The translations under genes were made by a program, and so were the position numbers. A stretch of DNA of 64,000 bases from Escherichia coli (GTDB lineage: Bacteria; Pseudomonadota; Gammaproteobacteria; Enterobacterales; Enterobacteriaceae): assembly GCF_048403405.1 (NCBI RefSeq), contig NZ_CP183129.1; one strand, given 5' to 3'. Positions 14,484 through 48,554 of the stretch are shown piece after piece (positions within the stretch are counted from its first letter, which is position 1; each line of letters begins with the position of its first letter). Under the pieces are notes generated by a model. The model ran no database searches. It saw nothing but the letters and a program-made list of their open reading frames with translations, and had not been told where the DNA came from.

Positions 14484-14646
14484 AGCTCCTCCTTAATGAC
14501 AGGGTTGCGAAGCCCTGATTCTCTTCAGGGTGAATATTAAAGATAACACAAACATCGCGTAACGATTTGATAACAACCCAAATTGATAAAAGAGGAGAAA
14601 GCTTGTGGCAAAACAAATGAAAACCCCGCCGCAGCGGGGTCAGGGA

Positions 14647-14742
14647 TCAGTGAGTAATGATCCAGAGGAGTTCGGCCCAGAAGAGCATCGACAGAGAAAA
14701 TGCGCCCATCCAGGACCAATATTTCATATTTGTGTTGATCAT
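14647..14742 (-). CDS. putative 31-aa hydrophobic small protein (MINTNMKYWSWMGAFSLSMLFWAELLWIITH)
   Basis: short ORF with upstream purine-rich stretch and downstream GC hairpin plus U tract; below the 60-aa ORF-track cutoff. Confidence 0.35.
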   Translation of the reverse strand: MINTNMKYWSWMGAFSLSMLFWAELLWIITH

Positions 14743-14855
14743 AGGCTACACCTTTAACGGTTATTACTTTGTGTTGAGATAACTCAACCTGTTATTGCTG
14801 CGGTGTATTAAAAGCCCTGTAATTCATTAAAAATGGGTAATAAGAATGATGATAA

Positions 14856-15166: not shown

Positions 15167-15484
15167 ATAATCGCCATCACTTATCAGCAAGACGTTGAAC
15201 GATTGGTGTAATTAATCATACGATGAGACAAATCCTAAAGAAACTTTAGTCAAAAATCCAGCGAATTTACGAATCGTCTCCAGTGAATAATTCAATCTTT
15301 TGACCTGAAATAGATATTTGAAAACTCGAGTTTGCGAGGCGGGTAATTAGACACTACTTTACAGGTAATTTACCCTATAAATATGAGGGATAAAAATATT
15401 GTGCACGGTATACAAATAAGCAACAAAAGAGAATATATTCCGGCACCTTCGCTACATAAAAGGTGCCGAAAATAACGCAAGAAA

Positions 15485-16483
<999 letters not shown>

Positions 16484-19929: not shown

Positions 19930-20600
19930 AAATGCGCCTATAAGGCTCTCTTACCAGCCGCGCCCTAACAGGCGCACACGATCTGACATTTGCATCCAAC
20001 TTCGTTACTTACGGCCCGTAAACGGGCTGCCCGGATAGGGAATCGATAACTGCTCTCCCATTTTATCCTCTTCAAGCTGGTGCTTTATGTAATCCTGTAT
20101 CTTCGCCGTGTTCTTACCCACCGTATCGACGTAGTACCCTCTGCACCAGAACTCCCTGTTCCTGTATTTGAATTTCAAATCACCAAACTGCTCGTAAAGC
20201 ATCAGACTGCTTTTCCCTTTCAGATATCCCATAAAGCCGGATACGCTCATTTTGGGCGGGATCTCCACAAGCATATGGATATGATCTGCACAGCATTCAG
20301 CTTCCAGAATCCGTACACTTTTCCACTCACACAGCTTTCTCAAAATACTGCCTATTGCTCTACGCTTCTCTCTGTAGAACACCTGTCTTCGGTATTTTGG
20401 CGCAAAAACTATGTGATATTTACAGTTCCATCGGGTGTGCGCTAAGCTCTTTTCGTTCCCCATTGGGACCCCCTTTTGATTTCTTGTTTGACACTTGCAG
20501 TTGCCAGACCGCAAGGTGTTTTAACAAATCAAAAGGGGTTTTAATAACTGGCTTAAAGCTGAAAGCTTTCCGGAACCCCCAGCCTAGCTGGGGGTTTTCT
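19930..20600 (-). mobile_element. IS200-family insertion sequence (IS200/IS605 family); boundaries approximate
   Basis: contains Y1 HUH transposase gene and, upstream of it, the palindrome aacccccagc-ctag-gctgggggtt (20572-20597) plus an RBS-sequestering stem-loop (20464-20530); inserted between yciN and sohB terminators. Confidence 0.7.
20005..20463 (-). CDS. tnpA: IS200 transposase TnpA (Y1 HUH)
   Basis: 152-aa product MGNEKSLAHTRWNCKYHIVFAPKYRR...HIHMLVEIPPK, near-identical to Salmonella IS200 TnpA as I recall it. Confidence 0.9.
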   Translation of the reverse strand: MGNEKSLAHTRWNCKYHIVFAPKYRRQVFYREKRRAIGSILRKLCEWKSVRILEAECCADHIHMLVEIPPKMSVSGFMGYLKGKSSLMLYEQFGDLKFKYRNREFWCRGYYVDTVGKNTAKIQDYIKHQLEEDKMGEQLSIPYPGSPFTGRK

Positions 20601-29442: not shown

Positions 29443-29487
29443 ATGAAAGCAATTTTCGTACTGAAAGGTTGGTGGCGCACTTCCTGA
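29443..29487 (+). CDS. trpL: trp leader peptide
   Basis: 14-codon [17 protein letters not shown] with tandem Trp codons. Confidence 0.9.
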
Positions 29488-29529
29488 AACGGGCAGTGTA
29501 TTCACCATGCGTAAAGCAATCAGATACCC

Positions 29530-29557
29530 AGCCCGCCTAATGAGCGGGCTTTTTTTT
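29530..29557 (+). terminator. trp attenuator (3:4 terminator hairpin)
   Basis: agcccgcc-taatga-gcgggc followed by T8. Confidence 0.9.
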
Positions 29558-44056: not shown

Positions 44057-47000
44057 TCAGCTGATACTGATGCCTGCGGTGGCTTTCTTCATCACCACAA
44101 CCAGCAAATCGCTGATACTTGCTGTGGGATACCAGTTATTCACCAGCCATGCTGACACCGAAAACTCCAGCGTCATGTGGCCGCGACCAGCTGGCATATC
44201 AATAACACCACTGTAAATCAGCGTATTATCCAGCGCGGTACGGTTATAAATTTCAGCACCGTTTTTCCGTACTATCAGGCGGCATGACGAATAAATATCG
44301 TTATTCTCCCGCTCATGTTTAGCGCCGCTGAATGCCACCGCCGGAATAACAATTTGCCTGTCAAAAGGCTGATCGTCATAAATCCTGACGGTAATGGTCC
44401 CTGATGGCCACCGCTCCGGTGCCCGGGAGTCCCGCGGAAAAGCCTTACCCACTGTTTTGACTATATCGCCTTCAATCTGGTTGGCTGACAGTTTCCCCTT
44501 AATCTGACAGTTCTCATTAATTGTGACATTGTTGAGCGTCCCGGCGTTCGCATTCACACTGCCACTGATATCTGCATTTTTAGCGGTCAGTTTTCCGTCC
44601 GGTGTCAGGGAAAATGCCGGAGGATTACCGCCGCTGGTAATGGTGGGAGCCGTCAGGCGTTTCAGGAACACGTCGTTCATGAATATCTGATCGCCCTGAC
44701 CAACAAACATCGGCTTTGTGTTGCCATTCGCAGGATTAATCATCGCAATCCTGTCTGCCGCCAGCAGCACCTGACTCTGCATTCCTGCTGGCGTATTCTC
44801 AATACCGGCACCGATACCCGCAATATAAAGGCGTCCGTCCTGCATCTGCTGCAGCTTCACAGCCCACATGCTGTTCAGATTATTATTTGTATCAACCTGA
44901 ACCTTCTGTATCTGCTGGATTGCCGCACTCTGATTTTCCAGTTTTTTATTGACGGTCTGCGTGATTTCATTGCTGACATCCGTAATGGACGTCCTGATTT
45001 CAGCCAGGTCAGGCGCAAGCTGACCGTTATCAATCTGCGTCCACAACTCCTGAGCCAGATGGGTTTTCCCTATCTCTCCTTTGAAAAAATTCAGATAGCC
45101 GGATGCATCATCACTCGGCTGGCCAACAGCCTCCACAAATGCCGATTTGCCAACGGTGTTCACACTGCGGATGTAAAAATAATAATCATGGCCCGGTTTG
45201 ATATTGATACTGGCAGCTATCCAGTACAGCGCCGAGCCAAGATAGCGGGCTGCGGTTTCAACCTGCCTGATATCCGCAATCCGCTTTTCCGAGAACCAGA
45301 ACTCAAACTGTACCGTCGGGTCATACACCGCAAGACGCGGGACCGCCGTTATCTGAAAATAGCCCGGCGTCAGCTCAATCCGCGACGGTGCTGCCGGTGC
45401 GGCAATCCGGAATGTGGTGGTGGCAGGTTCACCCTGCTGGCCATAGCTGTTTATCGCCCGCACCGTCAGGGTGTATTCCCCCAGCGGCAGGCCGCTGAAA
45501 CGGTGCTCCGTGTCTGCGGTGATGGCGGTGGTCACCAGTCTGGCATCCGTTCCCTTACCACTGGTCAGGCGCAGACTGAAGCGCACACCCTTCACCACCC
45601 GCGGCGTGTCCCATTTCGCCTGCGCCAGATACTGTCCGTCAGCTGCGCTCACCTCCACCGTCAGGTGCTGCACTGCCGGTGGGATGACGCTGTTCAGGGA
45701 ACCTGACTGCGGCTCAAAGCGGGCACCGTTATCCACGATGGCTTCTTTTTCCGGTACGTGCTGCACCGCCGTGATGGCAAAGGTGCCGTCCGTGTTTTCC
45801 CGGACGGAGACACAGCGGAACAGGCGACGGCGCAGTGACGGCAGGGAGAGTCCCCACACCCCGTATGTCTCCACACCATCAGGCAGGGTACTGACCTGTA
45901 TCCGGTCCGGCGCGGGGTGTTCGGTGATGTCCACACTCACCGGCTTACCGCTGCCGTTAATCAGGTTCACCGTGGCGGCACCGGTCTCCGGAAGTGTCAC
46001 TTCACGGTCCAGCGTCAGGGTGCGGGTGGCAGCATCAATGGACAGGACACGTCCGCCGGTCAGGGTCCCGGCATAGTCGTTATCACAGATTTCAATGATG
46101 TCACCGGGTGTGTGCCGCAGCCCCTGAGACCCGAGCGTGAAATCCACCGTCTGCGTTTCCAGCAGTTCGGTCTTTATCACCCACAGTCCGGCACGGTGGG
46201 CCTGACCGCGGCTGGTACAGCCGAACGCGTCCATCTTCAGCAGGTTGCGTCCGTAGCGCAGTATGGCTTCCGGGTCTTCCACCAGTTCCGTGGAGGTCTG
46301 CCAGCCGTTCTGCGGGTCGGTGTAATTCACCTCCACCGCCGTGTGCCGGTCCTTCAGGGCACTGAAGCTGTAGCGGAATCCCACGCCGTTATCATCCACC
46401 ACCACATCGCTGTTGGTGTACGGCCACACCACATCCGACGGGCGGTCCTGAACGAACGTCAGCGTCTGACCGTTCCATACCGGCATACAGCGCATCGCAG
46501 AGCAGAAATCACTGAGAACGTCCCACGCCTTACGCTGTTGTGCCAGGTACGCATTAAAGGTCATCCGCGGCTCGGTCCCCCCGAAACCATCCGGGACCGT
46601 CTGGTCGCAGTACTGCCCGATGGCATACAGCGCCCACTTGTCCACATCCGCCGCCCCCAGACGTTTTCCCATGCCGTAGCGCGGGTGAGTCAGCATGTCC
46701 CACAGGCACCAGGCCGGGTTGTTGCTGTATGCCGGTTTCAGACTGCCGTCCCAGATACCACTGTACGTGCGTTTTTCCGGGTCATAGTTTGACGGCACCT
46801 GGATGATGCGACCGCGGATATGGTAGTTCACCGTCATCTGCTGGCCGCCGAACTGCTCCGCATCCACCTGCAGCCCCACAATGGCCGTGTTCGGGTAGCA
46901 CTGTTTCACATCGATGATTTCGGTGTATGACGACCACAGCGTCTTATTCTGCAGCTGGTCCGTGGTGCTGTCCGCCGTCTCCCTGACCATCCGGATGTTA

Positions 47001-47530
47001 AAGGGCCGGGGAGGCAGATTATCCAGAATCACCGAGGCCAGGAACTGCGAGGTGGTCTTGCCGTTAATGGTGACATCCTTTTCCGTCACCCAGCGGCCAT
47101 TACGCTGTAACTGAATCAGAATCCGGACAGAGGAAGGATTACGGTCGCCCTTTGACGTGGTCTGCACCAGTGACTGCACCCCGAAGGTAACCCGCAGGCG
47201 GTCAATGTTCGCGGACGTAATGGTGCGCGTCACCGGTTTTGCCTTCGTCACTTCCACGCCCAGTCCGGTTTCAGCACCGGAGGACTCAAAGCCTTCCGGT
47301 GGTGTCTGCTCCTGCTCCCCGGCGCGCCAGACCGCCGTCACACCGTGTATCACGGGATTACCGTCCGTGTCCGTCAGCGGGGTTTTGTTCACCAGGATAC
47401 TCTGCAGTCCCTTCACCGGACCTTCTATCGGTCCCTCACCAATCGCATCAATCACGCTCATCATCTGCGTGGATTTGAGATTATCCTTCGCCTCACGAGG
47501 CGTGTGTGCCTTACCGCCACCTTTTCCCAT
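44057..47530 (-). CDS. J: tail tip host-specificity protein J
   Basis: 1157-aa ORF; N-terminus [38 protein letters not shown] and long collinear similarity to lambda gpJ. Confidence 0.95.
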
Positions 47531-47769
47531 ACAGCCTTCCCCTGAATAAATTAACCGCCACTTGCCATTCCGTACAGAAGTCGGATATCCTTCGCCCGAA
47601 AAGCATGAAACACATTTCTGCCATGCTAAAGAGAAACCCCGGTATCAGCAGATACCGGGGTTTTCTTTCATGCCCACCGATAATCCTGTTGGTTAAAACC
47701 GGTAATGGCATAAAAATTCTGAATATCTTCACATTTTCACAAACTGACTGTGGCGCGTATAATTTCTCT

Positions 47770-47866
47770 GCGTTAATTTTTTTGTCGTGATATAAGAATA
47801 ATTCCTTACACTTAATCTTCGTAACTCTCCCGCAGTTCCTGTCCGCGATCACTGCGGGATTTTTTT
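47770..47866 (+). ncRNA. candidate small RNA in I-J intergenic insert (prediction only)
   Basis: sigma70-like promoter TTCACA-16 nt-TATAAT (47736-47763) followed about 65 nt later by hairpin cccgcagt...actgcggg plus T7 (47828-47866); no plausible ORF. Confidence 0.3.
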
Positions 47867-47873
47867 ATTCTTT

Positions 47874-48554
47874 TTACCCCTGCCGCCCGATAACCACGAC
47901 CTTTCCGCCCCCGCCTTCATCACGGGTGCTGATGTCCTGGGATATACGGCGGGAGCCAACCAGCATTTCCCCGTAAGGCACCGGCATCGGGTTCCCCTGG
48001 GCAATCATGTTATCCAGTGAGGAAAAGTACGTGTTCTGTCTGCCGTTATCCGTTGCGCGGTAATCCGGTGTTTTTGCCTTCGGGGCCAGCATCTGGGCCA
48101 CACCGCCCAGAATCATGCTGGCTCCAAGTGAAAACAGCATCGTGGTGGCAGAAAAACCACCGGCTGCCAGGGCTGAACCCCATAACGCCATTGATGCCCC
48201 GGCAGTGAAGAAAGAGCCCACGATGGCTGCCGCCCCCAGCACAATCTGCAGTCCACCCTTTCCGGCCCCGGCCAGTCGCGGCACAATGTGGATGACCGTT
48301 CCCTCACCCAGCTGTTCGTGAAGACGGGCGTACACCGCCTCCGGTGCCGTGTCATAACCGGCAATACGTATCTGGTACCAGCCTTCGTTCATCTGACGGC
48401 GAAAGCCCGGCATCTGCATCGACAGGGCGCGAATGGCTTCCGCTGCCGTGTTCACATACAGGCTGAGGCGGCGGCCAAATCGTTGTAAATCCCCGTGAAG
48501 GCAGATGCGTGCCAGTGGCGGTGACGCCAGACTGAATGCGTTCGTCGTTGCCAT
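47874..48554 (-). CDS. I: tail assembly protein I
   Basis: 226-aa ORF MATTNAFSLASPPLARICLHGDLQRFGRR, lambda gpI-like. Confidence 0.9.
   Translation of the reverse strand: MATTNAFSLASPPLARICLHGDLQRFGRRLSLYVNTAAEAIRALSMQMPGFRRQMNEGWYQIRIAGYDTAPEAVYARLHEQLGEGTVIHIVPRLAGAGKGGLQIVLGAAAIVGSFFTAGASMALWGSALAAGGFSATTMLFSLGASMILGGVAQMLAPKAKTPDYRATDNGRQNTYFSSLDNMIAQGNPMPVPYGEMLVGSRRISQDISTRDEGGGGKVVVIGRQG

Follow-up and report, generated by a model that had tools for sequence, protein, structure and literature searches.

Introduction

Hfq-dependent small RNAs (sRNAs) encoded by prophages are known from both enteropathogenic (EPEC) and enterohaemorrhagic (EHEC) Escherichia coli. PasB is one of five 'pathogenicity-associated' sRNAs that were discovered by Hfq RIL-seq (detection of interacting RNAs by ligation and sequencing) in the EPEC strain O127:H6 E2348/69 (Pearl Mizrahi et al. 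2021, PMC8550237), and EcOnc22, EcOnc23 and EcOnc24 are homologous Hfq-CRAC (crosslinking and analysis of cDNA) peaks located in Sp15, Sp14 and Sp11 of EHEC Sakai, respectively (Tree et al. 2014, PMC4104026 Table S2). The subject of this study is the intergenic gap between the tail genes I and J of a prophage in a stretch of 64,000 nucleotides from E. coli (assembly GCF_048403405.1, contig NZ_CP183129.1), which is called the window in the following. A preliminary description of this DNA, made from its letters alone, had proposed a non-coding sRNA moron on the plus strand of the gap, antisense to the late operon. This proposal is borne out by a unit of promoter and terminator hairpin that is homologous to PasB and EcOnc22/23/24. 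The element as such has already been described in the literature, and the version in the window is a diverged, unannotated allele of a known family.

The pasB gene comprises 83 nt on the minus strand of NC_011601 (1466343 to 1466261) and belongs to prophage PP6 (PMC8550237 Table S6). Its RNA was validated by northern blot, depends on Hfq for its stability and takes part in 37 RIL-seq interactions (PMC8550237), in whose chimeras it is always RNA2, the 3' partner. Among the partners are bfpB, bfpI, ftsZ, galE, ler, perB and rplX and, furthermore, yhhX, ydbJ, yhiD, yibT, ygeV, yfcM and smg-yrdD. In EPEC lysogens pasB is active at a time when the late operon is silent; the RNA sequencing base means are 482 and 1082 for pasB, 4.8 for I and 15 for J. 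A restriction of PasB to Escherichia and Shigella has been reported, and a preprint by Zhu, Shabalina and Storz (bioRxiv 10.64898/2026.05.13.724894) places the gene inside a phage structural-gene operon and describes it as often the sole Pas gene in non-EPEC strains. EcOnc22 appears on northern blots as an RNA of about 85 nt which is destabilised in a Δhfq strain (PMC4104026).

A PasB-type sRNA gene between I and J

The plus-strand segment from 47770 (or about 47783) to 47866 of the window is very probably an allele of the PasB/EcOnc22/23/24 family, a self-contained cassette whose RNA is likely to act in trans together with Hfq. Homology, position, promoter, terminator and predicted structure of this allele are established by sequence comparison. 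I and J are both encoded on the plus strand of the E2348/69 genome, with the end of I at 1466255 and the start of J at 1466496. From these coordinates it follows that PasB is situated between the two genes, 5 nt from the stop codon of I, and runs antisense to the tail genes. The element of the window occupies the same place: the stop codon of I is at 47874-47876, the U tract ends at 47866, and the strand is opposite to that of the tail operon.

The window allele and E2348/69 PasB are 73% identical overall and 63% identical in the RNA body; in the promoter-bearing 76 nt that precede the mapped RNA start the identity is 87%. Exact identity extends over 25 nt at most, a run which consists of the 3' arm of the terminator and the U7 tract. 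The probe AATCCCGCAGTGATCGCGGAGCT, with which PasB was detected on the northern blot (PMC8550237 Table S6), agrees with positions 47840-47862 of the window at 20 of 23 positions. Within the allele set, E2348/69-type and ASU11-type alleles differ at position 27 by C or A, the same position that is used in the preprint by Zhu et al. (bioRxiv 10.64898/2026.05.13.724894) to tell PasB from PasB-2; this agreement confirms the register of the alignment. A covariance-model search had been recommended in the preliminary description. The model, trained on PasB-type and Sakai alleles only and with window-type alleles left out, found 47770-47866 (+) as its sole match in the 64 kb (57.2 bits, E 1.5e-12).

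The sigma-70 promoter of the cassette (47736-47763, +) is composed of the −35 box TTCACA (47736-47741), a 16-nt spacer and the −10 box TATAAT (47758-47763). With 11 of 12 consensus positions it ranks first among 4 promoter-like sites in 2.5 kb, shuffled sequences containing 1.6 on average. The Rho-independent terminator, which is at the same time the putative Hfq-binding module, extends from 47828 to 47866 (+), which leaves 7 nt up to the stop codon of I. Its 8-bp GC-rich stem is formed by TCCCGCAG (47828-47835) and CTGCGGGA (47852-47859), which enclose a 16-nt loop and are followed by T7 at 47860-47866, where the RNA's 3' end is expected. The 5' end is predicted at 47770 from the −10 box, or at about 47783 by homology to the end mapped in EPEC, and the length of the plus-strand RNA would thus be about 84-97 nt. 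All three signals listed in the preliminary description, namely this near-consensus promoter, the second hairpin with its T7 and a first strong hairpin with a U tract at 47637-47669, are present in the sequence. However, the architecture drawn from them needs a correction: promoter and second hairpin form one RNA gene, but the first hairpin is located upstream of the promoter and outside the RNA.

That the gap might be an inert spacer or a decayed repeat in which the motifs arose by chance is very improbable. Consensus motifs are weak evidence alone, and a comparison of the gap with Rfam gave no match at E <= 1, nor did the Sakai gaps. On the other hand, the homologues are transcribed and bound to Hfq in two pathotypes, the cassette occupies one fixed site in about 30% of the complete E. 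coli genomes, the 81-mer around the first hairpin is confined to I-J gaps and forms no dispersed repeat, and an E value of 1.5e-12 in the covariance-model search is hardly compatible with chance. The Rfam matches of the whole window are limited to IS009, STnc180, STnc490 and the Trp leader, all of them outside the gap; a search of the gap at permissive thresholds gave just snoRNA-like chance matches inside J, which were discarded. A full-text search of the literature with the RNA sequences returned no match.

A CRP-like site (TCTGA-N6-TCACA, 47718-47733, +) is located upstream of the −35 region and overlaps with it. Four such sites exist in the window where about two are expected, a count that does not exceed chance. 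Its distance from the −10 box deviates by about 3 bp from class II geometry. Both half-sites are retained in the otherwise diverged promoter of the Sakai allele. Higher levels of PasB have been reported for LB than for DMEM medium.

Relation to EcOnc22, EcOnc23 and EcOnc24

In the current Sakai record the coordinates of EcOnc22, EcOnc23 and EcOnc24 are all situated in I-J gaps, on the strand opposite to the tail genes. The three gaps are identical 240-bp sequences which carry a further PasB-like allele; in the extracted loci they correspond to L125 3192-3431 (Sp15, EcOnc22), L126 773-1012 (Sp11, EcOnc24) and L127 723-962 (Sp14, EcOnc23). Taken literally, the published coordinates point to offsets of 22-84 nt in the gap and thus to a place upstream of the RNA. 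The record to which they belong is, however, an older version, against which NC_002695.2 is shifted by about +140. This value was calibrated with AgvB, whose Rfam match is now at 1941920-1941981 compared to a published peak at 1941783-1941835, corresponding to a shift of +137 to +146. After correction the EcOnc peaks fall about 160-230 nt into the gap, on the RNA body.

It is therefore likely that EcOnc22/23/24 and PasB belong to the same family, although the link is not proven. EcOnc22 is mentioned neither in the first PasB paper (PMC8550237) nor in the accessible part of the second (bioRxiv 10.64898/2026.05.13.724894), and Table S6 of the former gives EHEC homologues for PasA and PasD and none for PasB.

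Allele diversity and distribution

A scan of IMG/VR with a 25-mer over the −35 region yielded at least 120 loci. Among the loci listed, 29 distinct RNA alleles can be distinguished, and the allele of the window is the commonest one with 41 copies. These alleles are mosaics in which 5' segments, core variants and terminator loops are variously combined, and hybrid forms provide a continuum joining the window type to the PasB type. Their consensus structure, calculated by RNAalifold, starts with a 5' hairpin in which a U run is paired with an A-rich run; a compensatory change of one outer pair from G-C to A-U is found in 10 alleles. Between this hairpin and the terminator about 30 nt remain unpaired. 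The 7-bp terminator stem CCCGCAG/CUGCGGG and the U7 tract are invariant in 29 of the 29 alleles listed, with loops of 4-16 nt, and the same applies to the pentanucleotide AUCUU of the core. Two rearranged copies have the appearance of prophage remnants left by deletion: L019 has other sequence downstream of the −35 box, and in L020 the stretch upstream of the sRNA promoter is joined to sequence from inside J.

The I-J gap is present in 1,661 of 5,426 complete E. coli genomes (about 30%) and is always unannotated; RefSeq contains no annotation at the gap of the window either. In 632 records, among them CFT073, S88, CE10 and ATCC 25922, the identity to the gap is at least 99%, and in CFT073, ATCC 25922 and S88 it is 100%. 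In addition, 52 phage records, mostly of Shiga toxin (Stx)-converting and PPompW phages, contain the gap.

The two main allele types were counted in the same 5,426 genomes by megablast with word size 28, as in the search of Zhu et al. The 83-mer of E2348/69 PasB was found in 956 genomes, always with at least 90% identity and never in the form of the window allele, and the 83-mer of the window in 799. The longest exact run that both have in common is 25 nt, and a PasB search with word size 28 is consequently unable to seed on the window allele. According to the preprint, variants of PasB differ by only few nucleotides (bioRxiv 10.64898/2026.05.13.724894). From both points we infer that the allele class of the window is probably absent from the published census.

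Outside E. coli, a pattern combining a loose terminator and the core was searched in one genome per species. Among 100,044 species it matched 39 stretches, 36 of which were rejected as chance matches in unrelated phyla. True matches were limited to Escherichia albertii and a 460-bp contig in a Parendozoicomonas assembly, an outcome in line with the limits of Escherichia and Shigella reported for PasB. The contig in question (L166, from the assembly of Parendozoicomonas haliclonae) is near-identical to the Sakai allele, with two substitutions, and most likely represents E. coli contamination. In E. albertii NBRC 107761 a second copy (L131) combines a window-like body with an unrelated upstream region lacking the conserved promoter.

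Seed region and mode of action

The proposed mechanism starts from a cassette that is inserted between the stop codon of I and the hairpin preceding J and would be transcribed from its own near-consensus sigma-70 promoter. Three parts are predicted for the RNA: the 5' hairpin of U run and A run, a single-stranded core of about 30 nt, and the GC-rich terminator hairpin with U7, which has the features of a classical Hfq-binding module. Binding of the window RNA to Hfq is thus suggested by the conservation of this module, and, to judge from the other alleles, expression, Hfq binding and a target set of its own may be expected for the window allele as well. Most likely the RNA would act in trans by Hfq-dependent base-pairing with messenger RNAs (mRNAs) of the host and of mobile elements, using a seed that would consist of the invariant AUCUU nucleus and allele-specific flanks and would be situated in the unpaired region immediately 5' of the terminator.

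The position of the seed was derived from 12 published RIL-seq partner fragments, along which 10-nt segments of PasB were slid. Complementarity peaks at AUCUUCAUUU of PasB (z −4.5), and 0 of 80 dinucleotide-shuffled sets reached this peak anywhere along the RNA. According to this result the seed is part of the unpaired core and directly precedes the terminator on its 5' side, a position typical of Hfq-dependent sRNAs. The PasB region complementary to the partners, i.e. the putative seed, is GAUCUUCAUUU, and the 7-mers AAUGAAG and GAAGAUC recur in the fragments of ler, bfpI, smg, yhiD and ydbJ. Two other approaches were abandoned. Full-length RNAduplex calculations of the sRNA body against the RIL-seq fragments produced long meaningless duplexes with unremarkable z values and were replaced by segments of 10-12 nt. 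A seed of the anti-Shine-Dalgarno type (CUCCUU/UUCCUU) was dropped at z values of about −1.5 with 6 and about −2 with 12 targets.

In the window the single-stranded core UUCCUUACACUUAAUCUUCGUAACU with the probable seed is located at 47802-47826 (+) and is unpaired in the consensus structure. The seed stretch reads AAUCUUCGUAACU here and GAUCUUCAUUUG in PasB; including the flank, the corresponding sequences are CGUAACUCU in the window allele, CAUUUGUCUG in PasB and CAUCGUUCU in the Sakai allele. The segment AAUCUUCGUAAC of the window retains AUCUUC of the PasB seed, and its flank is altered. Compared with the EPEC partner fragments the window allele gives a weak signal with z about −2, a value that counts against the proposed mechanism. 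Together with the changed flank it leads to the expectation of the same mechanism with a shifted target set, and the targets of the window allele probably differ from those of PasB. Membership in the family does not presuppose common targets.

Further points count against the identification or the mechanism and have to be set beside the evidence given so far. The 5' end mapped in EPEC is about 13-15 nt downstream of the start predicted from TATAAT, which could reflect processing of the RNA in its U-rich leader or an imprecise estimate. The assignment of EcOnc22 relies on a coordinate shift calibrated at 1.94 Mb and not at the EcOnc loci. The IMG/VR loci were picked with a 25-mer over the −35 region, and the conservation of this stretch is therefore biased in the sample. 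An invariant terminator stem yields no support by covariation, and the 5' hairpin is backed by one compensatory pair. Finally, the seed comes from our own computation with 12 fragments, and the original authors report no common motif for PasB (PMC8550237).

An alternative, or possibly additional, function would be a role in cis. The RNA could pair with the I-J part of the late tail mRNA and, by RNase III cleavage or decay during lytic growth, lower or uncouple the expression of J, lom and the tail fibre genes, as OOP of phage lambda does with cII. The gene is located entirely inside the late operon on the opposite strand, its complementarity is complete, the location is fixed in all alleles despite the variable body, and the arrangement of a promoter, an RNA of about 80 nt and a terminator convergent with a phage operon resembles OOP. 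However, the RNA overlaps neither the coding sequence of I nor the ribosome-binding site of J, from which it is separated here by more than 225 nt. The EPEC RNA is plentiful although there is hardly any expression of the late genes, and numerous unlinked mRNAs are found joined to it in Hfq chimeras; neither I nor J is among the partners in the RIL-seq table. Regulation in cis would also leave the invariant AUCUU core and the Hfq-type terminator unexplained. A main role in cis is for these reasons considered rather unlikely, and Hfq-dependent pairing in trans is preferred.

The hairpin upstream of the promoter

The first hairpin of the gap (47637-47669) consists of a 10-bp GC-rich stem (47637-47646 and 47651-47660) with a 4-nt loop, followed by TTTTCTTTC at 47661-47669, and has T-rich runs on both strands. 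For the 81 nt around it the folding energies of the plus and the minus strand are −32.2 kcal/mol (z −6.2) and −34.9 kcal/mol (z −5.6), respectively. A terminator scan did not list this hairpin, probably because the stem reaches into the T tract. The hairpin sits 76 nt upstream of the −35 box and accordingly cannot terminate the sRNA.

Its affiliation becomes apparent by comparison with related phages. The stretch from the promoter to J exists in two unrelated versions, a long module in the window and a short module in E2348/69 and Sakai. The short module contains a hairpin CAGGCAyC(C)/(G)GrTGCCTG with a compensatory change from C-G to T-A and a T-rich run only on the strand of the tail operon. 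The I-J gap of lambda (15445-15504; L124 1446-1505) carries a GC-rich hairpin ACCGCC/GGCGGU, followed by UUUUGUCAUUU on the tail-operon strand, directly before the ribosome-binding site of J; by its appearance this would be an intrinsic terminator within the late genes. Hairpins with a U tract on the tail-operon strand are thus present at the equivalent position in lambda, E2348/69 and Sakai, and on this basis the first hairpin of the window is probably the tail operon's own ancestral intercistronic hairpin or terminator, read on the minus strand. Our best guess for its role is that of a terminator for polymerases that are not antiterminated, but it could also stabilise an mRNA end. No minus-strand promoter that would feed a sense transcript to the hairpin was found in the gap at 9/12 or better.

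Alternatively, the hairpin might terminate a second plus-strand sRNA of about 70 nt (47598-47669), driven by TTGCCA-18-TATCCT at 47562-47591. A promoter-like site with 9/12 matches does exist upstream, and the segment folds into a 5' hairpin and a strong hairpin followed by UUUUCUUUC. Nevertheless, 9/12 is at chance level, as shuffled sequences contain 1.6 such sites per 2.5 kb, and the hairpin is part of a 47-bp indel which some loci lack. Moreover, in the non-homologous hairpins of E2348/69, Sakai and lambda the U tract is confined to the tail-operon strand, and no second Hfq-bound RNA from the gap is listed for EPEC, although EPEC possesses the other type of left module. A second sRNA is therefore improbable, and the assignment of the hairpin to the tail operon is retained.

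The indel was recognised by comparing loci: the IMG/VR loci L033 and L070 lack 47 bp (47620-47666) that have imperfect direct repeats TTTCTnnCATGC at their borders, which removes the hairpin exactly. A dispersed repeat or mobile mini-element was considered and rejected, since in E. coli the 81-mer around the hairpin occurs only inside I-J gaps. It was found in 1,445 genomes, 1,444 of them with the full I-J gap, and at a median of one place per genome.

Setting and coding content of the gap

The gap (47531-47873) is bordered by J (44057-47530, −) and I (47874-48554, −), the latter matching PHROG families of tail assembly proteins. With 343 bp it is much longer than its counterpart in lambda, which measures 60 bp (end of I at 15444, start of J at 15505), as the preliminary description had suspected. 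The statement made there that the gap has no convincing open reading frame (ORF) also stands: the lone long frame lacks a PHROG match and is broken in relatives. This frame of 113 amino acids (aa) on the minus strand (47511-47852, GTG start) was rejected on account of its odd, junk-like composition rich in Cys, Phe and Arg, the lack of any match to PHROG, and indels of 1 nt and 47 nt in related loci which would shift the frame.

A small protein encoded by the minus strand, be it this frame or one of 66 aa, has accordingly to be regarded as extremely unlikely. The frame at 47511-47852 is open, and in the record of phage ASU11 a 66-aa hypothetical protein, gp9c (L001 2981-3181), is annotated in the gap; it corresponds to 47511-47711 (−) of the window and overlaps the start of J. 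In addition to composition, missing PHROG match and frameshifting indels, however, RefSeq gives no annotation of the frame, the gaps of E2348/69 and Sakai are devoid of its entire left part, and its right part corresponds to the opposite strand of an RNA gene that has been validated. The gp9c call is probably spurious, given the frameshifting indels in relatives and the missing family match.

Despite a gap of 100% identity, J comprises 1,157 aa in the window and 1,230 aa in CFT073 (L002 2308-6000); with respect to the gap, the tail genes on its flanks are therefore mosaic. The Rfam matches to STnc180, STnc490 and the Trp operon leader are located at 14613-14815 (−), 20473-20596 (−) and 29464-29557 (+), respectively, from which it follows that the first half of the window is chromosomal backbone around trp with the prophage adjoining. 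The match to IS009 (RF02111, 39671-39869, −, 225 bits) lies just past the tail-fibre genes. In the preprint by Zhu et al. IS009 is described as a typical structured-RNA match in the flanks of PasB (bioRxiv 10.64898/2026.05.13.724894).

Implications

The candidate sRNA of the preliminary description can now be named as a member of the PasB/EcOnc22 family. The novelty of this finding is limited, the family having been validated experimentally, and the view of how such RNAs work remains unchanged. The family is absent from Rfam and RefSeq, and automated pipelines therefore leave the site blank in about 30% of the complete E. coli genomes. EcOnc22-24 of EHEC and PasB of EPEC, which were discovered independently, appear to be one family. 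The window allele represents a third allele class, about as common as PasB, in strains that include the extraintestinal isolates CFT073 and S88, and it is overlooked by high-stringency BLAST searches with PasB.

As a tentative proposal, to which we give somewhat less than even chances, the I-J cassette may be a platform with a swappable seed, on which the window allele has its own regulon unlike that of PasB, and EcOnc22-24, PasB and the window allele would form one family not yet joined in the literature. A conserved scaffold of promoter, Hfq-type terminator and AUCUU nucleus would be combined with recombining 5' and seed-flank segments. If this is true, each lineage of lambdoid prophages hands its host a differently targeted sRNA. 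The alleles, which differ in the likely seed flank, would in any case offer a natural series for studying how prophages retarget an Hfq-dependent sRNA.

Comparison with known systems

The anti-sRNAs AgvB and AsxR of EHEC (RF02702, RF02703) are, like the window RNA, short Hfq-binding RNAs encoded by autonomous cassettes in lambdoid prophages, with a conserved 3' module and variable target-recognition sequences. However, they are unrelated in sequence, and no Rfam match exists for the gap of the window. They occupy the moron site downstream of PR' instead of the tail operon and sponge core sRNAs, a mode of which the window RNA shows no sign.

OOP of lambda, also a small phage RNA, has a promoter and an intrinsic terminator of its own and runs towards a phage operon to which it is complementary. 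Its overlap is with the 3' end of cII, on which it acts in cis by way of RNase III. In contrast, the RNA of the window overlaps no coding sequence, and its relatives have many partners in trans on Hfq.

DicF of the Qin prophage is likewise a prophage-encoded, Hfq-dependent and trans-acting sRNA, and PasB has the translation-start region of ftsZ as one of its RIL-seq partners (odds ratio 43.6). The two are not related in sequence, though, and the predicted pairing between PasB and ftsZ is poor.

The Sakai alleles of EcOnc22/23/24 are much closer. They differ from the window allele by a diverged −35 region (TCCGGC), the −10 box AATAAT, their 5' part and seed flank, and a left module of the short E2348 type. 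They share with it the location in I-J gaps, the strand opposite to the tail genes, the AAUCUUC core and the CCCGCAG/CUGCGGG-U7 terminator.

PasB, too, is a close relative. Differences concern the RNA body with its 63% identity, the terminator loop, which is 5 nt longer in the window, the seed flank (CGUAACU in the window, CAUUUGU in PasB) and the dissimilar module between promoter and J. Common to both are the same I-J gap and strand, a 3' end few nucleotides from the stop codon of I, the promoter region with 87% identity, the identical 3' arm of the terminator with U7, the same predicted architecture and an IS009 match in the flanks.

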